A DNA stretch of 31,276 bases from a virus (Duplodnaviria > Heunggongvirae > Uroviricota > Caudoviricetes): the IMG/VR virus record IMGVR_UViG_2534682222_000020, positions 1 through 31,276 of that record. One strand, 5' to 3'. The position numbers and the translations under genes were made by a program. A model generated the notes under the pieces. The model did no database searches. It saw only the letters and a list, made by a program, of their open reading frames with translations, and had not been told where the DNA came from. This document shows positions 1-22,312 of this stretch, in pieces. Position 1 is the stretch's first letter. Every line of letters starts with the position of its first letter.

Positions 1-396
1 CTATTGTGCGGCCGATTCTTCTGGGCCGCACAATTTCTCGTAATCTTTTGGCGCCGTTCTATCTAAACCTGTGTAAATTTCTTTCCTCATGATTGAGTAG
101 GTTACACCCTTTGAGAAGGCGCCCTTAGGAACCATATTTATTTCTACCAGGAAGGGAGAAAAACCAGCGTAAGCCCCAAACCCATTTTTTGCATTCAGCT
201 GCCCGCATACGATCCCCTTAACCTCACCATCTTTTGTTTCTTCTGTTTGCACAAAACGCATATACCGAAATTTTGCGCTATCTGGATCTCTTGTATCTGC
301 GGCAACCTCTTTCTGCGCCAGTTCAATAGCCTTATCAACACCAGGCTTACACCCTACAAGCCCGATTAATGCCAGTAAAACCATGGTTTTTCTCAT
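1..396 (-). CDS. Putative lipoprotein (host gene or prophage cargo; possible surface/exclusion protein)
   Basis: ORF 1..462 minus; internal ATG at 394..396 preceded by GGGGA RBS gives MRKTMVLLALIGLVGC, a signal peptide with lipobox L-V-G-C. No recognisable phage structural homology. Lies beyond the ogr terminator. Confidence 0.5.
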   Translation of the reverse strand: MRKTMVLLALIGLVGCKPGVDKAIELAQKEVAADTRDPDSAKFRYMRFVQTEETKDGEVKGIVCGQLNAKNGFGAYAGFSPFLVEINMVPKGAFSKGVTYSIMRKEIYTGLDRTAPKDYEKLCGPEESAAQ

Positions 397-460
397 TTTC
401 GTTCCCCACTTCCATTGGTAAGAGCGGTAATTATCATTTTCTGCTGATTGCTTCTCAAGC

Positions 461-486
461 AAAACCCCGCAAATGCGGGGTTTTCT
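461..486. terminator. Bidirectional intrinsic terminator downstream of ogr
   Basis: Seen in sequence: aaaa-CCCCGC-aaat-GCGGGG-tttt; 6-bp GC stem (465..470 / 475..480), 4-nt loop, T-tract on both strands, immediately after the ogr stop (487..489). Confidence 0.55.
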
Positions 487-735
487 TCATACTGCGAGAC
501 TGAGTTGACTGCTTCCATAATGCGAAGCGGGGAAAGCATCTGATGGGATGAAATCAGCCGGTAACTTATCGCGTGGTGCGCGTTTGGTTACCAGCTTCTC
601 AACGCTGTTGAGCGTAGTAAACGTAATACTGCATTCGAAATTCTGGCACTGGTGATAATGCCGGACTGTCATTTCACTAAGATGGCGACTGGTGCGCGTA
701 CGGGCGACGGCACCACAAACAGGACACTTAAACAT
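487..735 (-). CDS. ogr: Ogr/Delta-family zinc-finger late-gene transcription activator
   Basis: 82 aa; MFKCPVCGA...RYHQCQNFECSITFTT matches the recalled P2 Ogr Cys4 pattern (CPxC...HQCQNxxCSxTF). Confidence 0.85.
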   Translation of the reverse strand: MFKCPVCGAVARTRTSRHLSEMTVRHYHQCQNFECSITFTTLNSVEKLVTKRAPRDKLPADFIPSDAFPASHYGSSQLSLAV

Positions 736-780: not shown

Positions 781-1935
781 CTATGATTCGGTTTCTGCAA
801 TCCATTCAGGTATTTTTGCTTCCAGTTCCAGCCGCGTTTTAAATCCACTGCTGTCAATAGTGTGGCTTGCCTTGGCAATTATCCAGTCCTGGCCGTCAAT
901 GACGTCTTTGAATTCCGTTACCGTTCCGTGCATCTCCGGATACAGATCCGCGCGCCCGTAAGCCAGGGTTAAAGTGAACTCAGCTGCTCCTCGCTGGAGT
1001 TGTTGCCATTTTGCAGCTGCTGCACGTTGTGCGGCCATCTCACTGCTGTACGTAGTGCGGAGTACAAAAACGTTACCATCTTCACCGGCAATATAGTCCC
1101 CTTCCCGGCTGCTGCTACGCGGCTTTTTGTCTGCGGTTTTCTTCCGTTTTTTAACAGTGACCTTTTTCTTTTTTCCGAAATCCATATCAAGCCAGTACGC
1201 CTGCACGCCAGTGTATGCGTCACGATCTGCAATCCGGAAAGAATGTCGATCTCCGCTGCTGCGCGTGATGGAAAACTCCGGTAACGCTCTGCCGTTTGCA
1301 CTGACGCCACCACCAGGCAGGATGAACAGCAGGTAACCATTTTTCACAGTTGCAATAGCGCCCAGCATTTCCGCCATGCGCGTCAGAAACGACATGTCAC
1401 TTTCTTGTGTCTGATCTGCATGGTCGATCTCGGCGGACATCAGTTGCTCTGAGATGAGAGGTTTTAACTTGTACCGGTGAGCTATAGCAGAGACGATGCG
1501 CTCAACTGTAACGTCATGCCACGACACCTCCCGTTTGACGTTAAACTCATCGCGGAAATCTGCACTTCTGGCCGTGATCTCGATACGGTCCGGCGGCCCT
1601 GAGTGCGCAATTTCATCCACGATGAAAATCCCTTTGTGAACCAGTTTTTCTCCCTGCCAGCCTATCGCTACTGACAATTCTGCACCACGCGGGGGTAACT
1701 CAATATCTCCCTGGCTATCATCAACAGTGATGGTCAGCTCATCAGCATTAAAGCCCCTGTTATCTGTTAATTCTAATGAGACCAGGTTCCCATCCAGCAT
1801 GATCAACGCCTTGCCGCCAAGCATGACGTTAAACGCAGGTACACGTGACAGGTCGCCCGGATAATTTTTGAATTTCTCAGCACCCGCATTCAGCAGGCTT
1901 TTTGCGCTCTCTATTGCGTCAGTTGTCAGTGCCAT
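781..1935 (-). CDS. D: Tail protein D (late control gene D)
   Basis: ORF 781..2016; likely start ATG 1933..1935 (MALTTDAIE) with GAGGAG RBS. Conserved blocks DNRGF, RSADFR, SWHD, HIDQTQESD..FLTR, SGFKT and a Lys-rich linker, as recalled for P2 gpD. Confidence 0.85.
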   Translation of the reverse strand: MALTTDAIESAKSLLNAGAEKFKNYPGDLSRVPAFNVMLGGKALIMLDGNLVSLELTDNRGFNADELTITVDDSQGDIELPPRGAELSVAIGWQGEKLVHKGIFIVDEIAHSGPPDRIEITARSADFRDEFNVKREVSWHDVTVERIVSAIAHRYKLKPLISEQLMSAEIDHADQTQESDMSFLTRMAEMLGAIATVKNGYLLFILPGGGVSANGRALPEFSITRSSGDRHSFRIADRDAYTGVQAYWLDMDFGKKKKVTVKKRKKTADKKPRSSSREGDYIAGEDGNVFVLRTTYSSEMAAQRAAAAKWQQLQRGAAEFTLTLAYGRADLYPEMHGTVTEFKDVIDGQDWIIAKASHTIDSSGFKTRLELEAKIPEWIAETES

Positions 1936-1993
1936 CGCTTTCTCCTCACGCAAATATTTCCATGCGCGCGCGATAGGACAAACAGCCTTTTGT

Positions 1994-2011
1994 TGTCGCC
2001 TTTCTGTGACA
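1994..2011. promoter_or_regulatory. Candidate Ogr-binding dyad (TGT-N12-ACA) between divergent D and FI
   Basis: Seen: tgtcgcctttctgtgaca. P2-type late promoters carry TGT-N12-ACA centred near -55. A GAATAT -10-like hexamer at 2046..2051 puts the dyad about -55 for FI; an AATATT-like hexamer on the minus strand near 1953..1958 puts it at a similar distance for D. Confidence 0.4.
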
Positions 2012-2086
2012 TCCATCGTGACGTGTCTGCCGCCCGGAATTCAGCGAATATCACCATGAACTCACTAAACATGATGGCGGTAGAGT

Positions 2087-3268
2087 ATGACCGACAACTT
2101 TTTCCACGGATCACGCACCAAAGAAAACACCGACCTTCTGGCCGCGATCAATGACATTGATTCAACGGTCATTGGTCTGGTCGCGGTGGCCGATGATGCC
2201 GATCCCCTCACCTTTCCACTTGATACACCAGTCCTGATCACTCGCGTGATTAGCGTGCTGGGTAAGGCAGGCAAGACAGGCTCACTGTATAAATCTCTCA
2301 AGGCTATTTCCGACCAGGTCAGCACGCGCGTCATTGTTGTTCGTGTCGCTGAGGCCAAAGAGGGTGAAGATGAAAAAACACAATCTCAGCTCATTATCGG
2401 TGGCACTCAGGCTGACGGAAGCTATACCGGTATGTTTGCCCTGCTGACCGCAGAGCAGAAAACGGGTTATCGCCCTCGAATCCTCGGCATTCCGATGTAT
2501 GACACGCAGGAAGTAACCGCACAGCTGCGCGTAATTGCGAAGCAACTGCGTGCGTTCTCTTACAGCTATTGTGATGGCTGCGAGACTATTGCCGAAGCGA
2601 AGACCTACCGCGAGCAGTTCGCCGAACGTGAAGGGATGTTAATTTGGCCTAACTTCATCGCCTACAACCCGCAGACCGGCGTTAATGAAGAATTCCCGGC
2701 TGTTGCCTATGCGCTTGGCCTGCGGGCACTGATTGATAATGAGCAGGGCTGGCACAAATCACTTTCTAACGTTGCGGTGAAAAACGTCCTGGGTATCTCT
2801 AAAGACGTGTTCTGGGCGTTACAGGCGGAGGACTCCGACGCTAATGAGCTGAACGCTAACGAGATTACCACGCTGATCAAACGCGATGGCTTCCGGTTCT
2901 GGGGTAACCGTACCACCGACACCGAAGAGTATATTTTCGAGGTGTTCACCCGGACGGCCCAAATTCTTGCGGACAGCATTGCGGAAGCACAATTCACCAC
3001 CGTGGATAAACCGCTTACCCCGGCTAACGTCAAAGACGTTGTAAGCGGGATCAATGCCAAGCTTCAGGCGCTGGTCACTGCTGGCAAGCTGATTGGTGCA
3101 GCGTGCTGGTTTGATATTGTCGACAACCCGACCACTGGTATTCGCCAGGGTAAAGTTGTTATTCGCTACAACTACAGTCCCGTACCACCGCTGGAAAACC
3201 TGACGCTGATCCAGACGTTTACCGATCAGTATTACGAACCAGCCTTTGCATCGCTGGGAGGTGCATAA
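2087..3268 (+). CDS. FI: Contractile tail sheath protein FI
   Basis: 393 aa; ATG at 2087; RALIDNEQGWHKSLSNV, TTLIKRDGFRFWGNRT, YNYSPVPPLENLTL closely match recalled P2 FI. Confidence 0.9.
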   Translation: MTDNFFHGSRTKENTDLLAAINDIDSTVIGLVAVADDADPLTFPLDTPVLITRVISVLGKAGKTGSLYKSLKAISDQVSTRVIVVRVAEAKEGEDEKTQSQLIIGGTQADGSYTGMFALLTAEQKTGYRPRILGIPMYDTQEVTAQLRVIAKQLRAFSYSYCDGCETIAEAKTYREQFAEREGMLIWPNFIAYNPQTGVNEEFPAVAYALGLRALIDNEQGWHKSLSNVAVKNVLGISKDVFWALQAEDSDANELNANEITTLIKRDGFRFWGNRTTDTEEYIFEVFTRTAQILADSIAEAQFTTVDKPLTPANVKDVVSGINAKLQALVTAGKLIGAACWFDIVDNPTTGIRQGKVVIRYNYSPVPPLENLTLIQTFTDQYYEPAFASLGGA

Positions 3269-3784
3269 ATGGCTATTCCTAAGAAACTCCGCCTGTTCAC
3301 GATGTTTGTCGATGGCGACAACTACATCGGGAAAATACCCAGCGTCACGCTCCCGAAAATCACCCGTAAAACGGAAGATTACCAGGGTGGCGGTATGCTT
3401 GGCTCTGCTGCTGTTGATCTCGGCCTTGATTCAGGTGCACTGGATGCATCAATGATTGTTGGTGGCATGGTCGAGGAGCTGATCCTGAAATGGGGTGGGG
3501 ATATTGACGAACTACGCACGCGCTTTGTCGGTGAGATCTACAGCGGCGGTACAAGCTCCCTGCTTGAGGTCGAGATGCGCGGACGTATTACCGAAGTCGA
3601 CCAGGGCGAAGCCAAGCAAGGTGATGACACCAATCATACTTATGCGCTCAAAAATACGTATTACAAGCTGTCCGTGGATGACAAACCTCTGCTGGAAATC
3701 GACCTGCTGAACTTCATCTACAAGCGCAACGGTAAGAGCCTCTACCCGGATCGCATTGCGTCCGCTCTGGGCCTCGGCCAGTAA
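3269..3784 (+). CDS. FII: Tail tube protein FII
   Basis: 171 aa directly after FI stop (TAA 3266..3268) with GGGAGGTG RBS; size and position as P2 FII. Confidence 0.85.
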   Translation: MAIPKKLRLFTMFVDGDNYIGKIPSVTLPKITRKTEDYQGGGMLGSAAVDLGLDSGALDASMIVGGMVEELILKWGGDIDELRTRFVGEIYSGGTSSLLEVEMRGRITEVDQGEAKQGDDTNHTYALKNTYYKLSVDDKPLLEIDLLNFIYKRNGKSLYPDRIASALGLGQ

Positions 3785-3805
3785 CCTTTTTTAACCACTA
3801 CAAAT

Positions 3806-3824
3806 GGCGGCCAGTCTGGCCGCC
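3806..3824 (+). other. Intercistronic stem-loop between FII and E
   Basis: Seen: GGCGGCCAG-t-CTGGCCGCC, perfect 9-bp inverted repeat; no downstream T-tract. Confidence 0.4.
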
Positions 3825-3837
3825 CGGAGAAAGAATA

Positions 3838-4137
3838 ATGTCAGTAACTCTCAGCCAACCCATTAAACGCGGCGATCAGGAAATCAAATCCGTCTCAATC
3901 ACCGACACAATCAAGCAGGCTGGCTCACTGCGCGGGCTGCGTCTGGTTGATGTTCTCAACTTCGATTATGACGCGGTATCAACTCTGCTGACTCGCGTAA
4001 CCACGCCCCAGCTGACAACTGCCGATATTTCCTCAATGGCGACCGGCGACTTTACGGCCCTGTGCGAAGAAATCACGCCTTTTTTGACGAAAGCGGCGCC
4101 GTCCGCACCGAGCGAGGCGGCAACGGCGAGCAAGTAA
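3838..4137 (+). CDS. E: Tail assembly chaperone E
   Basis: 99 aa; position after tube gene and before tape measure; contains the slippery heptamer near its 3' end. Confidence 0.8.
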   Translation: MSVTLSQPIKRGDQEIKSVSITDTIKQAGSLRGLRLVDVLNFDYDAVSTLLTRVTTPQLTTADISSMATGDFTALCEEITPFLTKAAPSAPSEAATASK

Positions 4138-4310
4138 GAGAGGCAGTATTCAGCGATGTCGACGATCTGATCGCCGATATCGCTGTGATATTTCACTGGC
4201 CGCCCTCCGAAATGCACAGCATGGAGTTGCGCGAGCTGATGGCCTGGCGCGAACGGGCGGCCATCAGAAGCGGCAACCATGATAAGGAGGATGACGACGA
4301 TGGATCTTAG
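3838..4310 (+). CDS. E': E+E' fusion chaperone made by programmed -1 ribosomal frameshift
   Basis: Slippery heptamer T TTT TTG at 4080..4086 in the E frame (cct ttt ttg); the -1 frame continues open as FFDESGAVRTERGG... to a stop at 4308..4310, overlapping the T start. Same arrangement as P2 E/E'. Confidence 0.7.
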
Positions 4311-7239
4311 TATTCGCGTTGCGTTCAGTGCAATTGACAAGCTCACCCGCCCGGTCAGCGCCGCCAGTAAAGCTATTGGCGGCCTTTCCGACTCCCTCAA
4401 AAAAACTCAGTCCTCCATCAAAGACCTGGAAAAAAGCGCAACATCATTTGATAAGTTACGCTCGCAAGCCAATGACACTGCGCAGAAGCTGAAAAGCACC
4501 CAGCGGGCATTTAACGGTCTAAACCAGAAGCAACGTGAAGGCGGCCAGCTTACTGAAGCCCAGACGGCACGGCTTGAGTCACTTCGCACCAGGCTTTCCC
4601 GGCTGACGGAAACCTACGGCAGGCAAACGACGCAGCTGCGCACAGCAGCGCAGGCTGTGCGCCAGCATGGCGTTAATCTCACCACCGGTAGCGGCGCCAT
4701 CCAGAGTGCCATCAGGCGTACGGAACAATACAACCAGGCACTTGAGCGCGAACGTCGTCAGCTGGCTGCTACCCAGAAAGCCCAGGCCAGATACGAACAG
4801 GCAAAAGAGACTGCGGGTAAACTTCGCGGTGCAGGCATGGGGATGATGCTTGGCACTGCTGCTGCGGGCTACGCTGGCGGATCATTCCTTGCGCCTGCGA
4901 TTGGTTTCGACGAGGAAATGTCACGCGTCCAGGCCTTAACCCGCCTTAATAAAGACTCTTCCCAGATGGGAGATCTGCGCGCGCAGGCTAAAAAACTCGG
5001 TGCAGAAACTGCATTCACCTCTCGCGATGCAGCCAGCGGGCAGGCGTTTCTTGCAATGGCTGGCTTTACTCCAGAGGCCATTCAGGCGGCATTGCCCGGC
5101 GTTCTGAATATGGCGCTGGCCGGTGGCATGGATCTTGGTGAAAGTGCCGATATCAGCTCCAACATTCTTTCGCAGTTCCGCCTTGATCCAAAGGAAATGG
5201 ATCGGGTCAGTGATGTTTTGACCGCAGCATTTACCCGTACTAACACCGATTTAATGAACATCGGTGAGGCGATGAAGTATGCAGGAACCGGGATGGCTGG
5301 TCTTGGCGTTGATGTTGAGCGCACAACCGCCATGATCGGTGTAATGGCCAACGTTGGCCTGCGGGGTAGTATTGCAGGTACTGGCCTACAAACCACCTTT
5401 TCACGTCTGGCCGCACCAACAGGCAAGGCTCAGGCAGCCCTGAAAGAATTGGGCGTTTCTGTTGCTGATGCCACCGGAAAAATGCGACCGGCCGAAGTGG
5501 TCTTGTCTGATATTTATAAATCTATCAAAAAGTACGGCGATACAGACCAGCTTTCATTCTTCAAAGATATCGCTGGCGAGGAGGCAGCAAAGTCATTTCA
5601 GGCGCTGGTTAGATCGGCTGGTAGCGGTGAGCTGCAAAAACTCCTTGCCGATTTGCGCGGCTCTCAGGGTGAAGCGCAGAAGGCAGCGAAGGTCATGGCT
5701 GACAACCTCAGCGGTGATCTGAAAAACCTGGACAGCGCATGGGAGGGTTTCCGCATTCAGATTGAGGAGACTGCCGACGGCCCTCTGCGCTCTCTCACTC
5801 AGGGGCTTAGCGATATGATCACCGCCGCCAGTACCTGGGTAAAAGAAAACCCCCGACTGACACAAACAATCATTCTGGTTGTCGGTGGGACACTTGCACT
5901 GGTGGCGGCAATTGGCGCTGCATCACTGGCGATGGGTATTCTTATTGGCCCCCTCGCCAAACTTCAGCTCGGCTTTTCACTGCTGACCGGTGGTCGCGGG
6001 CTACTCGGCACCATTGCAGCTTTTCGCACTCTCGGCACTGTCGCGGGCCCGGCCATGGCAAGTGTCAGAGGATGGTCCGTCGTACTGTCAGGAATCGCCC
6101 CTAACCTGGGAAGAATTTCAGCTATTCTCCCTGCGGTTCGCTCTGGTCTGCTTACTGCATTCCTGTCTCCTGGCGCACTTGTGGGATCGCTGACTAAAAA
6201 CATTGGCATGCTGCTGCTTCGCCTCACTGGCTTACCAGCAATCTGGGGCATGATCACCGGTGCGATATCTGTTCTTGGTGGGGCTTTATCTTTTTTACTC
6301 AGTCCAATAGGCCTGATTGGTGCCGCGTTTGTATCTGCGGGATTGCTAATCTGGCGATACTGGGAACCCATTAAGACATTTTTCCTCGGTATGTTTACCG
6401 GAGTTATGCAGGCGATCTCCCCTCTCAGGGATGCCTTTGCCACCTTTTCCCCCATCTTTGACATGATCAGCAATGGGGTGAAATCCGTCTGGCAGTGGTT
6501 TACAAACCTTTTGTCGCCAATGCAGACCAGCAAAGAGACGCTTGATAAATGCGCGAGCGCTGGCGTGATCTTCGGTAATGTGCTCGGCGGTGCGATTAAT
6601 CTCGTCCTGACCCCAGCCAGGATGCTACTTGATACTCTGGGCTGGATACTTGAAAAACTTGGTGTACTACCTGATGAAGCAGAGAGGGCGCGCAAGAAAA
6701 TTGAGGATGCGCAACGCACTGCCCTCCTTCAGGATAAGGTGGCTTTCCTTGCCGGTGATATGGCTAAAGTCGCCCCCAAAAAAGCAGAGTCGCCAGTTAC
6801 TACTGCTGCACCCGCTGCGGCCTCGCCGCTATCAGGAAATACCGGTACGCAACGACGCCTGCAAAGCATCGCAGACAATACAAAAGCAACCGCTGACAAC
6901 ACCAAGAAAGTCGGGCCGGGTGACATTATTTTCAAAAACCTGCCGCGCGCTCTGGCTTTACGTGGCGCATACCAGGAAGCGCGTGTTACACCGCAGTCAG
7001 TGCCGCGAGTGGCAACGCCCGCCGCTGGCGGCATTATTTCCGCGACAGCAGCCACTCAGGCACCGGTATCGGCCCCCGTTACCGCGCCCACCGGCAATGC
7101 TCCAGTGTTTAACATTACCTTTAACGATGTTGGTAAGCGCACGGATCAGGAGCTGGAAAGAATGGTACGCAATGTTGTGCGTGATGCGATGGCCAGTACC
7201 AACAGAAATAACCGTGGTTCTTTCCGCGACAGAGATTAG
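4300..7239 (+). CDS. T: Tail tape measure protein T
   Basis: ORF 4279..7239; preferred start ATG 4300 with AAGGAGG 9 nt upstream. About 980 aa, coiled-coil N-terminus, long hydrophobic Gly/Ala-rich middle, between E' and U. Confidence 0.85.
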   Translation: MDLSIRVAFSAIDKLTRPVSAASKAIGGLSDSLKKTQSSIKDLEKSATSFDKLRSQANDTAQKLKSTQRAFNGLNQKQREGGQLTEAQTARLESLRTRLSRLTETYGRQTTQLRTAAQAVRQHGVNLTTGSGAIQSAIRRTEQYNQALERERRQLAATQKAQARYEQAKETAGKLRGAGMGMMLGTAAAGYAGGSFLAPAIGFDEEMSRVQALTRLNKDSSQMGDLRAQAKKLGAETAFTSRDAASGQAFLAMAGFTPEAIQAALPGVLNMALAGGMDLGESADISSNILSQFRLDPKEMDRVSDVLTAAFTRTNTDLMNIGEAMKYAGTGMAGLGVDVERTTAMIGVMANVGLRGSIAGTGLQTTFSRLAAPTGKAQAALKELGVSVADATGKMRPAEVVLSDIYKSIKKYGDTDQLSFFKDIAGEEAAKSFQALVRSAGSGELQKLLADLRGSQGEAQKAAKVMADNLSGDLKNLDSAWEGFRIQIEETADGPLRSLTQGLSDMITAASTWVKENPRLTQTIILVVGGTLALVAAIGAASLAMGILIGPLAKLQLGFSLLTGGRGLLGTIAAFRTLGTVAGPAMASVRGWSVVLSGIAPNLGRISAILPAVRSGLLTAFLSPGALVGSLTKNIGMLLLRLTGLPAIWGMITGAISVLGGALSFLLSPIGLIGAAFVSAGLLIWRYWEPIKTFFLGMFTGVMQAISPLRDAFATFSPIFDMISNGVKSVWQWFTNLLSPMQTSKETLDKCASAGVIFGNVLGGAINLVLTPARMLLDTLGWILEKLGVLPDEAERARKKIEDAQRTALLQDKVAFLAGDMAKVAPKKAESPVTTAAPAAASPLSGNTGTQRRLQSIADNTKATADNTKKVGPGDIIFKNLPRALALRGAYQEARVTPQSVPRVATPAAGGIISATAATQAPVSAPVTAPTGNAPVFNITFNDVGKRTDQELERMVRNVVRDAMASTNRNNRGSFRDRD

Positions 7240-7248
7240 GTGACGATT

Positions 7249-7737
7249 ATGATGATGGTTTTTGGAATGTTCGTTTTTATGCTGCGCACCACGCCCTACC
7301 AGCAACTCCAGCACTCGCAGGAGTGGAGGCACGTTAAAAACGAGCGCGTTAACCAGTCAGCAGGCTGGCAGTACATCGGCACTGGTGATGACAACATAAC
7401 CCTTTCAGGTGTTCTTTACCCGGAGATCACGGGGGGAAACCTCTCGCTATCCGCCCTTGAAACTATCGGCTATGCGGGGCGCCCATGGCCGCTTATTGAT
7501 GGTACGGGACGTATTTATGGTATGTACGTTTTAACACGGCTGGAGCGAGGTAAATCCGAATTCGATCAATTTGGGAATCCCAAAAAAATTGAATTTACCC
7601 TCAGCCTGAGCCGTGTCGACGCGGATTACAGGGAGAAGCTGCAAAGCTCGACCGTCAGCGACGCCCTTGCCGGGTTAAAGACGAGTGCAAATAATGCGAT
7701 AAACCAGGTGAAAGACTCGCTCAACGGTCTGTTTTAG
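7249..7737 (+). CDS. U: Tail protein U
   Basis: ORF 7240..7737; ATG run at 7249 (MMMVFGMFVFML) with AGGTGA RBS; WRHVKNERVNQSAGWQY, ITLSGVLYPE, KIEFTLSL match recalled P2 gpU. Confidence 0.8.
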   Translation: MMMVFGMFVFMLRTTPYQQLQHSQEWRHVKNERVNQSAGWQYIGTGDDNITLSGVLYPEITGGNLSLSALETIGYAGRPWPLIDGTGRIYGMYVLTRLERGKSEFDQFGNPKKIEFTLSLSRVDADYREKLQSSTVSDALAGLKTSANNAINQVKDSLNGLF

Positions 7738-7744
7738 CAGTGGC

Positions 7745-8313
7745 TTAAACCCCTTCATGTTCCCTTCTTCTTGAAGGGAACTTCTTGTAAAGCGTCGATA
7801 TTCCGACATCAAAAATAATAGCCACCTGCTGCCGTTTTTCCCCTGCGGCGATCAGCCTTCCCGCCTGTTCCCATTGCTGCTTTGTCAGTTTTGGCCGCCT
7901 CCCGCCTATTCTTCCTTCTGCGCGGGCAGCCGCCAAACCGGCGCGGGTACGCTCAACGATCAATTCTCTCTCCATTTCTGCCAGCGCCCCCATGACGTGA
8001 AAGAAAAAGCGCCCATGGGTGTTGAGGTATCAATGCTGTCTGTCAGGCTGCGGAAGTTAACACCGCGATTGCGTAGCTCTTCGATCATTGTCACCAGGTG
8101 GCGCATGCTCCGCCCAAGACGATCAAGCTTCCAGACAACCAGCGTATCACCCTCCGATAAGGTCCGTAATAAACGCTTAAGCCCCGGCCTTTCCGCTTTA
8201 GTGCCGCTTATTTTGTCTTCAAATATTTGTTCACATCCTGCGCTTACCAGCGCATTTCTTTGCAGCGCAGTGTTCTGGTCATTTGTTGACACCCTTACAT
8301 AGCCGATCAGCAT
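7745..8313 (-). pseudogene. Hin/Gin/Pin-family serine DNA invertase, apparently frameshifted (1-nt deletion) or sequencing error
   Basis: N-terminal ORF 7960..8313 (MLIGYVRVSTNDQ..., active-site Ser) reads correctly to ...STPMG then goes out of frame; the adjacent frame reads GRFFFHVMGALAEMERELIVERT...GISTLYKKF (HTH domain) to a stop at 7745. The break maps to the C-run at 8012..8014. Confidence 0.6.
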
Positions 8314-8420
8314 AAAAATCCCCTTTTATTTAGATGTCATAGTCCCTCGCATTGTATCGAGCATCGTCATTTCTGGCTGTACTGCAGGTCTGGTACCGCA
8401 CCGTCAGAAGTAACCATGTC

Positions 8421-8446
8421 TTCCGGAAAACGTTGGTTTGGGAGAA
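8421..8446. repeat. Left inversion crossover site (gix/hix-like), invertase-proximal
   Basis: Seen: ttccggaaaacgttggtttgggagaa; 22/26 identical to the reverse complement of 10268..10293; AAACC...GGTTT architecture of Gin/Hin sites. Confidence 0.6.
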
Positions 8447-8767
8447 GCGGCGAAAAGGAATGTGGGGACTGGGGCGAATCAGATACCAGACATGTCAGCT
8501 TATTCATCAGGATCTGGCTGGCAAAAATTGCCTGATGGTTCAATTGAACAGTGGGGACGAATTAATTTCCCGACTAACGCCGCGGCGGTATCTACAAATG
8601 TGACTTTCCCCATTCCTTTTACGCAGGAGCCAGACGTAGTGATTGTATATGACGGCGGTTTTGGTGATGGGAATATGTGGGGCGCAACTAACTGGACGCG
8701 AACAGGATTTGTTGCGCATTGTAACTATGGATTTGAAGGTGGAGCTTTCTTTGCGAAAGGGCGTTAA
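8438..8767 (+). CDS. Promoterless alternative tail-fibre C-terminal domain (Sv'-like cassette)
   Basis: Open frame begins inside the left crossover site (...[15 protein letters not shown]...), has no ATG or RBS of its own, and is followed 2 nt later by a tail-fibre assembly gene; would fuse in frame to the H constant region after inversion. Confidence 0.55.
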
Positions 8768-8769
8768 TT

Positions 8770-9210
8770 ATGAAATATTTATATATTGATAATCTGGCGT
8801 ACCCTTACGCCCTACAGTCTGTTTACGCTGCAAAAGGGCAATGGCCAGAAGGAAAAGGCGTAGACATAGACGAAGCTATTTTCAGGGAATATTTCCATGA
8901 CACGCCGCCCGAAGGTAAGCGCAGAATTACCGCAGGCGACGGAATGCCAGCTTGGGCAGATGTTCCTCCACCAACACGTGAAGAACAAATTGCATCAGCC
9001 GAAACTAAAAAGCAGCAATTGATTAACCAGGCCAACGAATACATCAACAGTAAACAATGGCCAGGTAAAGCATCAATTGGTCGTCTGAAAGGTGAGGAAC
9101 TGGTGCAATATAATTTGTGGCTGGATTATCTGGACGCACTGGAACTGGTCGATACTTCCGGTGCGCCAGATATTGAATGGCCTACGCCTCCGGCAGTTCA
9201 GGCCAGATGA
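8770..9210 (+). CDS. Tail-fibre assembly protein, alternate copy (Tfa')
   Basis: 146 aa; ATG 8770 right after the cassette stop; C-terminal ...LVDTSGAPDIEWPTPP resembles the C-terminus of the minus-strand Tfa (...TDTSTAPDVIWPELP). Confidence 0.7.
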   Translation: MKYLYIDNLAYPYALQSVYAAKGQWPEGKGVDIDEAIFREYFHDTPPEGKRRITAGDGMPAWADVPPPTREEQIASAETKKQQLINQANEYINSKQWPGKASIGRLKGEELVQYNLWLDYLDALELVDTSGAPDIEWPTPPAVQAR

Positions 9211-9784
9211 CGTCCGGCGCTGTGCTGGTATCTGTTGCCGTCACCGCGTCAATGTAATCCAGCACAGCGTTAAGTCGGGTGTTTTCTGGCTGCGTCAGCT
9301 TCCGCCCGGCCTGTAATTTCAGTTGAATCAGACTGATGGAAGCCATTGCTGCATTAATCAGTGACTGGCGCTGTGCTTCTGCCGCGTCTAGTGCGGCGCT
9401 ATGCTGTGCCTCGGTATCCGTCACCCATTTCTCACCATCCCATTTATCGTATGGCGTTAATGGGGCGATAGTGGTTGTATTTTCAGGGTAATCACCCGGA
9501 ACTGTGATTTCTTTGGTATCTCCCGTTTCGGTACTATAGACAACTTCACCGCGATGGTCTGGCACATATTCCCATGAATTTAAATCTACAGAGCGACAGA
9601 TTGCATAACCAGCTTTATGTGTACCTGGTGCATCCAGACAGGAACATGCCGGGATACCGACGCCGACAGCGAGATATTCAGTTGATGTAGAAATATATTC
9701 CCGCGTTTCGCCATCATAGTTATGTACGATGATTTCCCCATCATTTAAAGCGTAACCGTCTTTTCCCAAAATAGCCTGTTCCAT
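9182..9784 (-). CDS. G: Tail-fibre assembly protein G (active-orientation copy)
   Basis: 200 aa immediately downstream of H (H stop 9785..9787, ATG 9782..9784); conserved Tfa C-terminal motif. Confidence 0.75.
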   Translation of the reverse strand: MEQAILGKDGYALNDGEIIVHNYDGETREYISTSTEYLAVGVGIPACSCLDAPGTHKAGYAICRSVDLNSWEYVPDHRGEVVYSTETGDTKEITVPGDYPENTTTIAPLTPYDKWDGEKWVTDTEAQHSAALDAAEAQRQSLINAAMASISLIQLKLQAGRKLTQPENTRLNAVLDYIDAVTATDTSTAPDVIWPELPEA

Positions 9785-12381: not shown

Positions 12382-12736
12382 TGCTGCTTTTCCTGAGTGT
12401 TAAAGTTGTCTTCTGCTGTTCCATGGATTCTGTCAGCGAGCCTGATAATCCCGCTTCCACTGCCCCGGACTGAGAAAAGCGTACATCCACGGCGCTCAGA
12501 GTGATCCGTGGTTCCCATGTCGCCAGCGCAATCACCACCGCGCTCATCAGCTGCATACGTGTAACGTCGTTTTGCGGGCCATCAATCAGGTCAGGAACAA
12601 GAGAGCCGTAATCACGGCGCATGAGCCTTGAGCCAATCGGGGTGTTAAGAATGTCACTGGCTGACTGCCACACGTGGGCGGCGTCCGTCAGCGTTCCCGT
12701 GCCATCAGGATTCATCCCGGTATAGCGCACCGTCAT
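12368..12736 (-). CDS. W: Baseplate protein W (gp25/GPW family)
   Basis: 122 aa; MTVRYTGMN...GSRLMRRDYGSL matches recalled P2 gpW (MTARYLGMN...GSRVMRRDYGSL). Confidence 0.85.
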   Translation of the reverse strand: MTVRYTGMNPDGTGTLTDAAHVWQSASDILNTPIGSRLMRRDYGSLVPDLIDGPQNDVTRMQLMSAVVIALATWEPRITLSAVDVRFSQSGAVEAGLSGSLTESMEQQKTTLTLRKSSNGNS

Positions 12737-13317
12737 TTCGTGCCCTCCGTCCAGCTTCCGCCACGCTGTACAGCACCATGACCATGATCATCAACCTGCA
12801 CACCGTTTGAGATGAACGCACCGCCTGTGTGCGTAAAGTCCCCCTGCATTTTGCCGCCTTCCGTAACGGTGAAGTTTTTGGTTTTCAGCATCTCGGTACA
12901 CTCGACCAGCGGCGTTTTCAGTAAGACCTTAACCGACGCCTCAATCGTTGCTGATTTGATGCCACTGACCTGCAAAGCCCCTGCCTCTGCGTCATAGCGA
13001 AACTTCGCGCCATCCGGCGCGGTCACGATCATTTCTTTTGTCGATGCGCCTGGCGCCGGATTGTCGTTGCTGTAAAGACTTCCCCCGATGATCGCAGCGG
13101 TTGTATTCCCCCCCAGACTCAGGAACCAAACCTGCTCGCCAACAGACGGCGGCACCCAGACGCTGAAAGCGCCTGCACGCTGTGCATTCCAGCGCAGCCA
13201 GGTGGAATCCAGCTCTCCGCTTTGTACCCGTACCCGCCATTTTTTCTCGTCAATCTCCGTCACCGTACCGGTGCGAACGATGTTTTCCAGCAGGCGGATG
13301 ACCTCAGCCAGATCCAT
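12733..13317 (-). CDS. V: Baseplate spike protein V
   Basis: 194 aa; position upstream of W; size and glycine-rich C-terminus consistent with P2 gpV. Confidence 0.75.
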   Translation of the reverse strand: MDLAEVIRLLENIVRTGTVTEIDEKKWRVRVQSGELDSTWLRWNAQRAGAFSVWVPPSVGEQVWFLSLGGNTTAAIIGGSLYSNDNPAPGASTKEMIVTAPDGAKFRYDAEAGALQVSGIKSATIEASVKVLLKTPLVECTEMLKTKNFTVTEGGKMQGDFTHTGGAFISNGVQVDDHGHGAVQRGGSWTEGTK

Positions 13318-13958
13318 CAGCTCACCCCCAGAGAATCAATGACCTGTCTGGCGATAGCCATGCGGTCCGCTTTGCTCAGGCCGAGCAACTCACGGCGCGG
13401 ATAACTCGCCATCGCTCCGCTGTCGTTAACCCTGTCCCGTAACCCGTACTGGTGAACACGGGCGATGCGGGCAGCTGCACCAGAGAAACCAACTACAGCC
13501 CCCTCAGAAGTCGCTCTTGCTTTCAGAAAACGGGTTGTGCGCAGTCGGCGAAACATAGGATCACTTTTTGTGGTATCGCGGCGCGTCTCGCTGAAACTGA
13601 TATCAAGATAACGCTCAATATCAGAGCGATAGAACGAGCGAACAGCCCCCTTACCCTCATCAAAGCCTGTCAGCATGCGTCCCCGGCTTCCACGGCTTGC
13701 CCGCCAGTTTCGCAGGCGACGCTCCTCACCCTGCCAGATAAACCCGATCCCAGCCTGGGAGCGTAAGACACGGCGGCGACGCTTCGGGTATTTTGTGCCA
13801 TCCGGAGCTGTCTGTTTTCCGATGCGCTGGCTCTGGCTACGGCGTAATGTAGTCGCTATTCCGCGCGCTGTACGCAACCGGCCCGCTGGCGCCATTGCGG
13901 AAAGGATGTCTGCAAAAACCTGATCGAGCTGATGAAACAGCGCTGCATCACCGGTCAT
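13317..13958 (-). CDS. S: Tail completion / virion morphogenesis protein (S-like)
   Basis: ORF 13317..13991; preferred ATG 13956..13958 overlaps the R stop (ATGA); Arg-rich basic protein in the S position between R and V. Confidence 0.6.
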   Translation of the reverse strand: MTGDAALFHQLDQVFADILSAMAPAGRLRTARGIATTLRRSQSQRIGKQTAPDGTKYPKRRRRVLRSQAGIGFIWQGEERRLRNWRASRGSRGRMLTGFDEGKGAVRSFYRSDIERYLDISFSETRRDTTKSDPMFRRLRTTRFLKARATSEGAVVGFSGAAARIARVHQYGLRDRVNDSGAMASYPRRELLGLSKADRMAIARQVIDSLGVS

Positions 13959-14404
13959 GCCAGCTCTCCTCCGCCAAATACTACCTCCCACTCACCGCCA
14001 TAGATGCGAGGGCGGTCTTCACTCAGGTGTTTCGCGACTGGCTTCCCGTCAACGATTTCCACCATGACGCGCTCCCAGACCGGCACCTTGAAGAGAAGAT
14101 CAGCCAGGTCATCGCTGATAATGTCGGCGTCAAACTCCACCTTGCGGTTATTGTCAGGATTCAGCAGTAAATCCGGCTGATATTGCCAGGCCCAGGCCAT
14201 AATCGGCAGCATCAGGTCATCAACCGCCCCGGGGAACTCCACGGCGAGAACATTGATGGTGTAGAGATACATGAATGACGGTTCGCCGGTCGCTTCAATC
14301 CCGATATTGCCTTTTTCCACCCAGACGGTGATTTGCTCCGGGTTGGCCTTACACCAGGTGTTACCGGCTATCAGGGCTTCACGCATCAACTCTGCTTTTT
14401 TCAC
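13955..14404 (-). CDS. R: Tail completion protein R
   Basis: 149 aa; position and similarity to recalled P2 gpR (MLPIMAWAWQYQPDL). Confidence 0.7.
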   Translation of the reverse strand: MKKAELMREALIAGNTWCKANPEQITVWVEKGNIGIEATGEPSFMYLYTINVLAVEFPGAVDDLMLPIMAWAWQYQPDLLLNPDNNRKVEFDADIISDDLADLLFKVPVWERVMVEIVDGKPVAKHLSEDRPRIYGGEWEVVFGGGELA

Positions 14405-17468: not shown

Positions 17469-18518
17469 TTATGCGCCGCCTGCCGGCGCCTCGGCAAAGG
17501 TAATGCCGTCAATGAATGCGACGTTGCCGTAGTCCTCGATCACAAAGTCATCATTCGATGACTGATAAGTCGCAATACGGTTGTATTCCGGCTCCTCCTT
17601 GATCGTCCGGCGCAGTCCACCGCGCTGGTAGTACACGGACAGGTTTTTAAACGGCGTGATCAGTACGCCATTGACCGGGAAGTACGGCGCGATGAAGGTC
17701 GGCATGTTGCCGACACGTTCCTGCGCAACAATCAGCTGACCGGCCAGCATTTCGGTGTTCGGGTTGGTCTGGCTCATGGCGTTAATCGCCGGGAAGTTGC
17801 CGGTGGTCAACAGGTCGCCCGCCAGGATCACCACGTTGTCAGGATTACGTTTGTGCCATTCATCCATCAGGCTGTTTTTGGCGTCGTACACCGCCGCACC
17901 CAGGTTGCCGTAAGTCCCTTTCGCAATAACCTTGTTATCTTCATCACGGGAAGTGATCGTGACGCCGGAAATCACGCGGTGTGAGGCTTCAGTACGGATT
18001 TTCTCCAGCCAGCCAATGCCACAATCCTGCAACAGTGGGTTAGCCGCGCGGTCTGATGGATCGCTGTATTTGGTGCCGTTGAAACCGATCATGATGCGGT
18101 CAAGTGACATCTGACGAGCCATCGCCTTGCTGATTAGAGGCTGGAATTCCGGCATGTGCGCCCAGGCATCAAGCTGTTCATAGCTGATCCCGTAGTCGTA
18201 GTTGACCTTGCGGCACATGTAATCAAACGGCTCCATTGAATGGTTAGCACCTGGATTACGACGGTTGGTGGTGCTGTTGTTAACGCCAGCCATCGGGCCT
18301 TTGCTGCCAATCAGCACTTTCTGACCAATCTGCTGGTTAACGCCAAACACGTTAATTTTGCTCAGGAAAGAATCACTCTCCTGTGCGGCCTGCTCCAGGC
18401 GTTGCTGACGCGCCGGGTCTACCGCAAATTTCGCAGCGACTGCCGCAGTCGATACGCCGTTTAACTGCGCCTGGCGCGCAATGTACTGATCAAACAGCTG
18501 GCGGGTATTGTTTTCCAT
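17469..18518 (-). CDS. N: Major capsid protein N
   Basis: 349 aa; QSLDRIMIGFNGTK, SDRAANPLLQDCGIGWL, EMLAGQLIVAQERVGNMP match recalled P2 gpN. Confidence 0.9.
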   Translation of the reverse strand: MENNTRQLFDQYIARQAQLNGVSTAAVAAKFAVDPARQQRLEQAAQESDSFLSKINVFGVNQQIGQKVLIGSKGPMAGVNNSTTNRRNPGANHSMEPFDYMCRKVNYDYGISYEQLDAWAHMPEFQPLISKAMARQMSLDRIMIGFNGTKYSDPSDRAANPLLQDCGIGWLEKIRTEASHRVISGVTITSRDEDNKVIAKGTYGNLGAAVYDAKNSLMDEWHKRNPDNVVILAGDLLTTGNFPAINAMSQTNPNTEMLAGQLIVAQERVGNMPTFIAPYFPVNGVLITPFKNLSVYYQRGGLRRTIKEEPEYNRIATYQSSNDDFVIEDYGNVAFIDGITFAEAPAGGA

Positions 18519-18541: not shown

Positions 18542-19375
18542 TCAGTAATCAGCCAGCTGCGCGTTGGCGCCGCCGTTCGCAGGTGGTCGCTGACTGAAGG
18601 AAGCTTCAGTGCTCCCCAGCTTCTGGCGCAGCTCCGCAAGCTCAGTGGTCAGCTTCTGGATAGCGGCCTTATCCTCCTTGCGCTCCTGCTCTGCGGCACT
18701 GAATCGATCAATTTGCTCGGATTGCGATTGCGCCACGGCCTCAACGACCTGATGCATCTGATTGAAGCGCTGATCGTCCGTTTTCTGACCTTTGCCAATA
18801 ATGCTCATCACGCGATTAAACCACTTGGCACCTTCATCGCTGCGCTGGGCTGTCAGCTCGATCACCTCTGCTTCAAGCGCTTCGGTGAACATCGGCGCCT
18901 CACCCTGCTGGTTATTGAAGGCCATCACCGATGCACGCTGCTGTGAGGCAAATTTAAGACGCTCAGTGCCCAGGCTCGCCGGGGTGTCGGTCATTGCCAG
19001 CCCGACAACATAGGCTTTGCCGTTGAGGGCAAACTGCGGATGCAGCTCAATACTGGAATAGACTTTTTGCCCTTTGTCGGTCATCTGCACCATGCGCTCG
19101 GATGGTTCGATTTCGGCATAAAGCGCGGTGCGCCCCGCCAGTGCACCTTCGGTGATGTCTTCAGTGCTGAGGGCTACCACATCTCCCATCGCCCCAAAAT
19201 CACTATTCGGGAACATAGAGAGATAGTGCTCAATGTTGACCCGCGCGCCATACACCTCAGGGTTGTAATTTGCTGCTGCATCGCGAAGGTGCTGCGGTTG
19301 AATTTCGCGCCCATCAACGGTATTTCCGGAGACGGCCACGCGAAACTTCTTACGTGGTTTTGCTGTGCCTGCCAT
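18542..19375 (-). CDS. O: Capsid scaffolding protein O
   Basis: 277 aa; first gene of the minus-strand late operon, divergent from P; coiled-coil C-terminus. Confidence 0.8.
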   Translation of the reverse strand: MAGTAKPRKKFRVAVSGNTVDGREIQPQHLRDAAANYNPEVYGARVNIEHYLSMFPNSDFGAMGDVVALSTEDITEGALAGRTALYAEIEPSERMVQMTDKGQKVYSSIELHPQFALNGKAYVVGLAMTDTPASLGTERLKFASQQRASVMAFNNQQGEAPMFTEALEAEVIELTAQRSDEGAKWFNRVMSIIGKGQKTDDQRFNQMHQVVEAVAQSQSEQIDRFSAAEQERKEDKAAIQKLTTELAELRQKLGSTEASFSQRPPANGGANAQLADY

Positions 19376-19451: not shown

Positions 19452-19469
19452 TGTGAGCGGAGCACTACA
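19452..19469. promoter_or_regulatory. Candidate Ogr-binding dyad (TGT-N12-ACA) in the O/P divergent late-promoter region
   Basis: Seen: tgtgagcggagcactaca; centre about 55 bp upstream of a plausible P transcription start (GTTAAT -10-like at 19503..19508). Only perfect dyad in the 160-bp intergenic region. Confidence 0.4.
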
Positions 19470-19535
19470 ACCTAAAGCGAGCGCAAGGGTACGCGCGCGC
19501 GGGTTAATCTCCCCGGCAGGAAGCGAGGAGGATTA

Positions 19536-21257
19536 ATGGCGATTGAAGAAGCATTCATCATGCAGCGTGCACGACAGCTTTACTGGCAGGGCTACCCGCC
19601 AGCAGAGATCGCACGCCTGATGGGGATCAACCAGAACACGGTTTACTCATGGAAAAAGCGAGATGAATGGGACACCACACCGCCGATCCAGCGCGTGACA
19701 ACATCCATTGATGCCAGGCTAATTCAGCTCACTGGCAAAGACAAAAAGACCGGCGGTGATTTCAAAGAGATTGACCTTCTCACCCGTCAGCTGAAAAAGC
19801 TGGATAACGGCACAGCAGCCACCCAGCCGAAGAAAAAGATCCGCAAAAAGCAAAACTATTTCTCAGAGTCGCAGATTGCCGCGCTGCGGGAGAACATTCT
19901 CGGCTCTCTGCACTGGCACCAGAAAGGGTGGTATGACAATCACCACTGGCGCAACCGTATGATCCTGAAAAGCCGTCAGGTTGGTGCGACGTGGTATTTC
20001 GCGCGTGAAGCTCTGGTGCGCGCCCTGTCTGAGGATGTGAAATACAAGCATCAGCGCAACCAAATCTTTTTATCGGCAAGCCGCCGCCAGGCGTACCAGT
20101 TTCGCAGTTTCATTCGCTCGGCCGCCGAAGAAGTTGATGTGGAGCTTAAGGGCGGCGACATGATCCAGCTGTTCAACGGCGCCGAGCTGCATTTTCTTGG
20201 CACGTCAGCGGCTACCGCTCAGTCATACACGGGCAACCTGTATTTCGACGAATTCTTTTGGGTAGGCCAGTTTGCCAACCTGAAAAAAGTCGCGGGCGCT
20301 ATGGCAACGCTAAAAGGCCTTACGCGTACCTATTTCTCCACCCCTTCAGCCGAAAGCCATGAGGCTTATCCATTCTGGACAGGTGAAGCATTTAACAAAG
20401 GTCGCAGCCATGGCAAGCGCATTGAGTTTGATACATCCTGGAAAACACTTAACAGCGGCCTGATGTGCCCGGACAAGATCTGGAGGCAGATTGTCACGTT
20501 GCAGGATGCTATCGACCATGGATGGGATCTGACTGATATCGACGAAATCCGGGAAGAGAACAGCCCGGAAGAGTACGACAACCTGTACGGATGCCAGTTC
20601 ATCAAAAGCGGTGAAAGCGCCTTTGACTATAACAGGCTACTGGCATGCGGTGCTGATGGTTATGACGACTGGCCCGACTGGCGGCCATATGCGGCCCGCC
20701 CTATGGCTGATCGTCCCGTCTGGATTGGCTACGACCCGAACGGCGCCAGCGGCAAGGGGGACAGTGGAGCCATATCCGTTAACGCTGTGCCGATGGTGCC
20801 CGGCGGCAAGTTCCGCACGATTGAGACACTACGCATACGAGGGATGGAGTTCGAAGAGCAGGCCAATCTCATTATCGGCATGCTCACCCGGTACAACGTG
20901 CAGCACATTGGGATCGATGGCACCGGTATTGGTGAAGCGGTTTATCAGCTGGTTAAAAAGCATTTCCCGGCAGCGGTTTGTTACCAGTTCTCACCGTCCA
21001 GCAAGCGAATGCTCGTTCTGAAGATGCAACAGCTGATTCGTGGCGGGCGCTGGGAGTTTGATCGTGGTGAGCTTGACCTGGTTGGTGCATTCAACTCTGT
21101 CCGCAAGATCGTTACCCCTGGCGGCGTTGTCACTTACGACACGGACCGCTCTCGCGGCGTCAGTCATGGCGATCTCGCATGGGCGACGATGCTTGCCACC
21201 ATTAACGAACCGCTGGGACAAGAAGGCGGCAGCAGTATGACAGTTACGGAGTATTAA
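19536..21257 (+). CDS. P: Terminase ATPase (large) subunit P
   Basis: 573 aa; divergent from O; GAGGAGG RBS before ATG 19536. Confidence 0.85.
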   Translation: MAIEEAFIMQRARQLYWQGYPPAEIARLMGINQNTVYSWKKRDEWDTTPPIQRVTTSIDARLIQLTGKDKKTGGDFKEIDLLTRQLKKLDNGTAATQPKKKIRKKQNYFSESQIAALRENILGSLHWHQKGWYDNHHWRNRMILKSRQVGATWYFAREALVRALSEDVKYKHQRNQIFLSASRRQAYQFRSFIRSAAEEVDVELKGGDMIQLFNGAELHFLGTSAATAQSYTGNLYFDEFFWVGQFANLKKVAGAMATLKGLTRTYFSTPSAESHEAYPFWTGEAFNKGRSHGKRIEFDTSWKTLNSGLMCPDKIWRQIVTLQDAIDHGWDLTDIDEIREENSPEEYDNLYGCQFIKSGESAFDYNRLLACGADGYDDWPDWRPYAARPMADRPVWIGYDPNGASGKGDSGAISVNAVPMVPGGKFRTIETLRIRGMEFEEQANLIIGMLTRYNVQHIGIDGTGIGEAVYQLVKKHFPAAVCYQFSPSSKRMLVLKMQQLIRGGRWEFDRGELDLVGAFNSVRKIVTPGGVVTYDTDRSRGVSHGDLAWATMLATINEPLGQEGGSSMTVTEY

Positions 21258-21259
21258 CC

Positions 21260-22312
21260 TTGAGCAAACAAAGACCCACACGCGGCAGGAAGTATGCCAG
21301 GGAGCAGGCAGATCTCGCCGCCTCACTGAAAGCGTCACCGGAGCTGAACTCATTCACCTTCGACGGCCCATGGCCGGTGAGTGGTGCCAGCGACCTGCTT
21401 GATAACATGTATTGCGCAGACAACGGGCGATACTACGAAACCCCCATTGACTGGTATGGCCTCGCCCGTCAGTTTGGCTATGCAAGCTGGCACCAGTCGG
21501 CGCTTTATTTCAAGCGCAATGTCCTTGCCGGATGCTTTATCCCGCACAAACTTCTTTCCCGCCAGGTGTTCTCCGCCTTCGCGCTGGACTGGTTTGTCTT
21601 CGGGAATGGCTATCTTGAGATGCGAAAAAACCGGCTTGGTGGTTCCTTTGGCTTTCGTCACTCGCTGGCGAAATACACACGACGTGGTTCTGACCTGGAC
21701 ACTTACTGGTTTATTCAGGCCGGGCTACAGGATCACATGTTTTCAACGGGCTCGGTATGTCACGTTCTCAGCCCGGATATTCACCAGGAAATATACGGCA
21801 TGCCTGAGTATTTCGCTGGCCTGCTGTCTGCAAACCTGGCCCATTCTGCTGACAAGTTCAGAAAGCTCTACTACGACAACGGCTCGCACGCTGGCTGCAT
21901 CGTCTACGTTAACAGCGCGATGGCCGACCAGGAGAGCCTTGATAAGCTCAAAAAGACGCTGACGGATACCCGGCGGGGCGGTGCGTTTAAGAACATCCTT
22001 CTGCACGCACCTAACGGCGGCAAAGACTCCGTGCAAATACTGCCATTCAGCCAGATATCGGCTAAGGATGAGTTTGTGGGGGTGAAGTCTTCCACCCGCG
22101 ATGACATGCTGGCAGCGCACCGGGTGCCGCCGCAACTGATGGGAGCCATTCCGGAAGGGAACGGTTCATTCGGTGATATTGAGAAAGCGGCTCGCGTGTT
22201 CGCCGTCAACGAGCTGACACCCTGCATGGAAGCCATGAAGCATGTTAACGACTGGCTGGGTGAGGAGGTGATTCGCTTCAACCCTTACGCATTGCTTGAA
22301 CCCACGAAGTGA
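21260..22312 (+). CDS. Q: Portal protein Q
   Basis: 350 aa directly after P; start codon uncertain (TTG at 21260 in the ORF track). Confidence 0.75.
   Translation: MSKQRPTRGRKYAREQADLAASLKASPELNSFTFDGPWPVSGASDLLDNMYCADNGRYYETPIDWYGLARQFGYASWHQSALYFKRNVLAGCFIPHKLLSRQVFSAFALDWFVFGNGYLEMRKNRLGGSFGFRHSLAKYTRRGSDLDTYWFIQAGLQDHMFSTGSVCHVLSPDIHQEIYGMPEYFAGLLSANLAHSADKFRKLYYDNGSHAGCIVYVNSAMADQESLDKLKKTLTDTRRGGAFKNILLHAPNGGKDSVQILPFSQISAKDEFVGVKSSTRDDMLAAHRVPPQLMGAIPEGNGSFGDIEKAARVFAVNELTPCMEAMKHVNDWLGEEVIRFNPYALLEPTK

Follow-up and report, generated by a model that had tools for sequence, protein, structure and literature searches.

A conserved symmetric dyad as a predicted shared Ogr site between the divergent late genes D and FI of a P2-like prophage

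Gene content and order of the prophage

Searches by tblastn with all P2 proteins, together with Pfam, showed the window, that is, the whole stretch of viral DNA that was analyzed (31,276 nucleotides), to be a P2-like prophage (family Peduoviridae) that is nearly complete. Its nearest genome contig comes from Yokenella regensburgei ATCC 49455, with a D protein 98% identical, and the nearest named phages are Klebsiella phage 3LV2017 (Reginaelenavirus) and Serratia phage KSP20, at ~77% DNA identity. No Rfam family was found anywhere in the window.

Along the plus strand, the window starts with ogr (487–735, minus strand), D (781–1935, minus strand), the FI-FII-E-T-U block (2087–7737, plus strand), and a tail-fiber switch region. 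Beyond this region lie G-H-I-J-W-V-S-R...X-L-M-N-O, all on the minus strand with O at 18542–19375, and past O are found P-Q (19536–22312, plus strand), A and cox (both minus strand), and C and int (both plus strand). The first gene of the leftward unit, D, was recognized as the tail/baseplate hub gene by Pfam (PF05954 Phage_GPD, E 1.3e-15) and by its 48% identity to P2 gpD, and the first gene of the rightward unit, FI (2087–3268, plus strand), as the tail sheath gene by its Pfam sheath domains and its 50% identity to P2 FI in tblastn. Encoding a tail hub protein and a tail sheath, both are morphogenetic (late) genes. Downstream of D, ogr codes for an 82-aa homolog of the zinc-finger late activator (PF04606 Ogr_Delta, E 1.9e-18; 41% identity to P2 Ogr).

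The switch region, of the Gin/Cin type, lies between U and H (7745–9784). Its serine invertase is distributed over two overlapping minus-strand ORFs, one carrying the Resolvase N-terminal domain (7960–8313) and the other the resolvase C-terminal end and an HTH_7 domain (7745–7993), which suggests a frameshift or a pseudogene. An alternative fiber C-terminus (8438–8767, plus strand; Gp53-like_C) is followed by a tail-fiber assembly gene (8770–9210, plus strand), and these plus-strand fiber genes converge on the active assembly gene (9182–9784, minus strand).

Comparison with the annotated P2 record revealed that the orientation of the FI-U block is flipped. The F operon of P2 (FI FII E E′ T U D) ends with D, and late transcription continues past it into ogr, whereas here D lies on the other strand; the inversion thus separates D and ogr from the F operon, with D and FI reading away from each other over a 151-bp spacer (1936–2086). 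U still immediately precedes D, as in P2, in distant Burkholderia and Roseibium relatives (D identity of at most 43%), which identifies the inversion as the derived state. Divergent D and FI genes were present in all the intact Enterobacterales loci recovered (D identity of at least 67%), as well as in phages of three genera, Reginaelenavirus, Novemvirus, and Reipivirus.

The D start codon (CAT at 1933–1935) is invariant across the relatives. A longer D frame (ORF 781–2016, with an ATG at 2016) was considered and ruled out, as the region upstream of the D start is non-coding: among the relatives, positions 1936–2086 display 1-nt indels and no triplet periodicity.

Conserved elements in the D/FI spacer and before ogr

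The D/FI spacer holds a predicted Ogr-type activator site, the TGT-N12-ACA dyad TGTCGCCTTTCTGTGACA (1994–2011, center 2002.5), whose left arm extends to TTGTTGT (1990–1996). A preliminary description of this DNA had reported it as the sole perfect dyad of the spacer, together with a GAATAT hexamer at 2046–2051 and another perfect dyad at 19452–19469 in the O/P spacer, and all three were recovered at these positions.

The dyad is weak evidence when a single sequence is considered. Four perfect dyads were found in the whole window where 5.9 are expected, hence no enrichment, and a perfect dyad appears in 3.2% of the shuffled versions of the D/FI spacer and in 2.4% of those of the O/P spacer. Two of the four sit in the two divergent late spacers; the remaining two, in the coding sequences of FII (3303–3320, where the extended arms GATGT...ACAAC are also matched) and N (17873–17890), are probably chance matches. 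The case for the site therefore rests on its position and on its conservation over 41 relatives. The same holds for GCGCGCGC and GAACTCA, two motifs that, like TGT-N12-ACA, show no window-wide enrichment, so that only their position and conservation count.

To follow this conservation, D/FI spacers were taken from 43 loci of many enterobacterial genera (D identity 67–98%) and aligned, giving 41 distinct sequences, which share ancestry and are therefore not 41 independent tests. The TGT half-site is invariant (41/41), and the TTGTTGT arm is invariant or nearly so. The central N12 is always 12 nt long and occurs as 30 different sequences, while the right half-site reads ACA in 19 spacers, AGA in 20, and AGG in 2. 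An invariant TGT, a fixed length, and a free N12 are together the signature of a putative protein-binding site.

On the FI side, the predicted −10 hexamer GAATAT (2046–2051, plus strand) lies 34 nt past the dyad, with A2047, A2050, and T2051 invariant in the 41 relatives. On the minus strand, an extended −10 can be predicted for D, composed of TG (1962–1961), a G, and the hexamer AAATAT (1959–1954), likewise at a distance of 34 nt; none of the 41 relatives departs from the TG, from A(−11) at 1958, or from T(−7) at 1954. The single dyad is thus equidistant from two divergent predicted promoters (34/34 nt). Applying the rule observed in P2, where transcripts start 7 nt after the hexamer, would place the FI start at G2058 (plus strand) and the D start at a G at 1947 (minus strand), each 55.5 bp from the dyad center. 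The predicted D leader would then be only 12 nt long (12–16 nt in the relatives), beginning within the Shine–Dalgarno sequence GAGGAG. The earlier proposal that both hexamers lie ~55 bp from the dyad applies to these predicted starts and not to the hexamers, which are 34 nt from the dyad ends and ~46 bp from its center. Likewise, the minus-strand −10 had been placed at 1953–1958, approximately right but one base away from the best-supported AAATAT. A consensus promoter scan found no sigma-70 −35/−10 pair in 1936–2086, as expected of activator-dependent promoters.

The spacing is kept on both sides of the dyad. A GAnnAT hexamer is found 34 nt from it on the FI side in 40 of the 41 spacers (35 nt in the other one), and an nAnnnT hexamer on the D side in 39 (35 nt in the other two), with A(−11) and T(−7) invariant in both hexamers. 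Most of the D-side hexamers of the relatives are weak (AACCAT, GATCCT, or AATCAT, for example). What drifts is the distance from the hexamer to the start codon, with values of 18–22 nt for D and 29–39 nt for FI. Since indels are present in the spacer and absent only from the dyad-hexamer intervals, the distance to the dyad appears to be constrained in both directions, although part of this constancy might be due to additional conserved blocks in these intervals rather than to a coupling with the dyad.

Such blocks were found on each side. An alternating GC block, GCGCGCGCG (1964–1972), stands 4 nt upstream of the D hexamer and is at least 90% conserved in the 41 relatives; a similar block, also conserved in relatives, stands 3 nt upstream of the P hexamer (19492–19500), and CGCGGGGCGCG occupies a comparable place in the P2 PP promoter. 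On the FI side, GCGTG (2021–2025) is conserved. The predicted +1 of FI, 7 nt after the hexamer, opens the heptamer GAACTCA (2058–2064, plus strand), which is 90–100% conserved in the 41 relatives and recurs at the predicted +1 of O (19404–19398, minus strand), where it is nearly invariant too. By eye, GAACTCA could be taken for a sigma-E −35 element; this was discarded, as it has no matching −10 and leaves no room for one before the FI start codon. The GC block and GCGTG fall outside what a shared activator site would explain. Like GAACTCA and the elements before ogr described below, they do not contradict it and suggest extra control.

We also searched for a second activator site, as additional degenerate sites could have accounted for each promoter separately. 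No further dyad turned out to be conserved. A TGC-N12-ACA sequence with one mismatch, at 1963–1980, was rejected, being present in only 5 of the 41 relatives and having no hexamer at the right distance. Other dyads with at most one mismatch are sporadic, the commonest offset being shared by 6 of the 41 relatives, and over half of the spacers lack them altogether.

Further conserved elements were identified around ogr. A candidate ogr promoter on the minus strand consists of TTGCAG (800–795), an 18-nt spacer, and CATAAT (776–771), the last three bases of which (AAT) are invariant in 44 relatives; the annotated ogr promoter of P2 is at the same place. It was not listed by the consensus scan because its −35 matches at only three of six positions. 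Between this promoter and ogr lies a conserved near-palindrome, GAGTTCAACTC (764–754, minus strand), and a hairpin (CTCCC at 756–752 with GGGAG at 746–742, minus strand) covers the ogr ribosome-binding site. The hairpin is conserved in the relatives with compensatory changes (CCCC/GGGG, CCCCG/CGGGG, and ACTCC/GGAGT), and this leader may exert a translational control on the late activator. Past ogr, an intrinsic terminator (CCCCGC-ATTT-GCGGGG-TTTT, 461–484, minus strand) occupies the place of the P2 ogr/F-operon terminator. Beyond it, an ORF of 153 aa without any Pfam match (1–462, minus strand) may be host DNA or prophage cargo beside the attachment site.

Comparison with the late promoters of P2 and with the O/P spacer

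P2 Ogr binds inverted repeats at about −55 and needs the RNA polymerase alpha subunit (PMC3152322). In the P2 RefSeq record (NC_001895), a single "activator binding site; pO, pP promoters" is entered at 3057–3087; on its two sides, the P start was mapped at 3016 (minus strand) and the O start at 3127 (plus strand). Reading the P2 sequence, we found a TGT-N12-CCA dyad at 3063–3080 whose center (3071.5) is 55.5 bp from either start. A hexamer lies 34 nt from this dyad on each side, TAGCCT for P and GAAACT for O, and the start is 7 nt after the hexamer. As the P2 P/O spacer is too divergent to be aligned with those of the clade analyzed here, the geometries were compared through coordinates. Both D/FI hexamers stand 34 nt from their dyad, exactly as at the mapped PP and PO of P2, the starts at ±55.5 bp being mapped in P2 and predicted here.

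The D/FI spacer is, as far as its sequence predicts, a copy of the P/O design: one inverted repeat midway between divergent late promoters without −35, and an Ogr-family activator. The repeat is imperfect in P2 (TGT-N12-CCA) and a perfect TGT-N12-ACA in the window. The gene pair also differs, as the P2 site separates P-Q from O-S whereas this one separates D-ogr from FI-U, and P2 has no D promoter, in contrast with the one predicted here with its invariant extended −10 TG. In position as in sequence, the FI-side promoter is homologous to P2 PF, which consists of a TGT-N12-CCA dyad, a 35-nt gap (34 nt in the window), GAAAAT (GAATAT in the window), and a start mapped at 17626, 7 nt after the hexamer; ACTCAC is found near the start in both. 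The PF site of P2 is one-directional, with fun(Z) and a terminator upstream.

The second predicted shared activator site of the window (19452–19469) is the homolog of the P2 pO/pP site and is conserved in 51 related O/P spacers. The hexamers TAATCT (19505–19510, plus strand) for P and CATCAT (19416–19411, minus strand) for O are each 35 nt from it. Both control regions were read in four genomes, and in each of them the P/O and D/FI sites carry one and the same half-site variant: ACA at both sites in the window and in 3LV2017, AGA at both in phages phiT5282H and ST16-OXA48phi5.4. This match fits with one protein reading both sites, with a weight limited by the shared ancestry of the two pairs. 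A comparable proposal was made for the Stenotrophomonas P2-like phage Smp131, where one 18-nt TGT-N12-ACA-like sequence (nt 4381–4398) was assigned to both PP′ and PO′ and where the authors remarked on rearranged tail operons (PMC3931495); that case is a prediction only and concerns P/O, not D/FI.

S (13317–13991, minus strand) abuts V (12733–13317, minus strand), so that no spacer separates the two genes and, in contrast to P2, no V promoter is apparent; the same junction is annotated in 3LV2017, phiT5282H, and ST16-OXA48phi5.4. A search around the S/V junction found no V promoter; the nearest one-mismatch dyad (13433–13450) was rejected as an equivalent because it has no nAnnnT at 34–35 nt. 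The genes from O through G may form one operon of ~10 kb.

Proposed control of D and FI and alternative readings

We consider it probable that the dyad at 1994–2011 is the binding site of the prophage Ogr and is common to two back-to-back late promoters lacking a −35 element. The prophage's own Ogr-family zinc-finger protein would bind the dyad and recruit RNA polymerase, via its alpha subunit, on either side, the symmetry of the site allowing the polymerase on each side to meet the bound activator alike. In P2, the action of Ogr is blocked by the rpoA109 mutation (alpha L290H). Each promoter would combine the alpha contact with a weak −10 hexamer at the 34-nt distance and start at G2058 or at G1947 (minus strand). 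Rightward transcription would cover FI-FII-E-T-U, and leftward transcription D and probably ogr, stopping at the terminator (484–461). The inversion of FI-U would then have cut D-ogr from the F promoter and brought the D start beside the F activator site. That one symmetric site might serve both divergent promoters had been put forward in the preliminary description, and the conserved dyad, the fixed spacing, and the mirror geometry of P2 argue in its favor. The shared-site design already exists at P2 PP/PO, so that the principle is known and does not constitute a new mechanism. CRP, a symmetric dimeric activator contacting the alpha subunit, can also activate polymerases on both sides of one site; the analogy is mechanistic only, the protein being unrelated and the site different.

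The dyad might instead serve FI only, with D (and ogr) transcribed from an Ogr-independent extended −10, TGgAAATAT, adjacent to it by chance. Extended −10 promoters can function without a −35 element or an activator, the TG at −15/−14 is invariant in the 41 relatives, and an Ogr-independent route to ogr would help to start the late cascade. We nevertheless regard this reading as unlikely, because the 34-nt distance on the D side is kept in 39 of the 41 relatives despite the indels located just downstream, because the D-side hexamers are mostly weak, and because the same mirror geometry exists at PP and PO of P2, both of which are known late promoters. Moreover, D codes for a structural tail protein needed late, and ogr apparently has its own conserved promoter, so that D need not be expressed without Ogr for the cascade to start. 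The invariant TG could, under a shared site as well, give the D promoter some activity without the activator.

It is far less probable that D has no promoter in the spacer and is transcribed from a start within or beyond FI, in antisense, or from another upstream source, the minus-strand elements serving otherwise. The predicted 12-nt leader is indeed unusually short; however, the minus strand upstream of D carries 5.6 kb antisense to FI-U, and the invariant TG, A, and T match a −10 exactly, 18–22 nt from the invariant D start codon. We give even less credit to a fortuitous dyad, or to one bound by an unrelated protein such as CRP or PpsR/CrtJ. The lack of window-wide enrichment would fit with this, as would the use of the same TGT-N12-ACA string by PpsR/CrtJ in phototrophs, but those proteins belong to phototrophic bacteria and not to Enterobacterales. 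All 41 relatives have the dyad at this position, the same motif at the homologous P2 site is annotated as an activator site, an Ogr gene is present in the window, and, from one genome to another, the two control regions change their half-site variant together.

With one Ogr site shared by D and FI, the clade would possess a second control region of the P2 PP/PO type, made by the FI-U inversion and conserved over several enterobacterial Peduoviridae genera. In the literature searched, which covers older phage papers thinly, we found nothing on the D/FI arrangement or its promoters, and no transcript mapping, binding, or reporter results for this phage or its close relatives. The inversion would have needed no new activator site, as the symmetric site of the F operon could be read from its other side in the way the P/O site already is, and the result would be a compact regulon of two sites and four predicted promoters. 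This would be a case of a phage regulatory circuit outlasting a genome rearrangement.

A more tentative possibility, on which we would not insist, is that the whole late program of this clade combines two symmetric bidirectional Ogr sites, an ogr feedback through the D promoter, and an additional layer of late-promoter control. P-Q and O-to-G may be transcribed from one site and FI-U and D-ogr from the other, with no separate V promoter. If so, the D promoter would put ogr under direct positive feedback, with the invariant extended −10 of this promoter providing the basal expression needed to set the loop going. The GC block, GAACTCA at +1, and GAGTTCAACTC with the hairpin over the ribosome-binding site would then mark a control layer undescribed for P2.

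The arrangement described here provides a rule for late promoters in Peduoviridae prophages, namely a dyad followed at 34–35 nt by nAnnnT, with the transcript starting 7 nt after this hexamer. It also fixes the start codons of D and FI, which are set too far upstream in several public records, so that the annotated coding sequences cross the control region. In KSP20 (AB452988), D is annotated at 838–2268 and overlaps FI; the annotated FI start is 45 nt early in phiT5282H and 126 nt early in ST16-OXA48phi5.4, leaving a "spacer" of 28 bp in the latter. Homology-based starts give a D/FI spacer of ~150 bp in all three alike.
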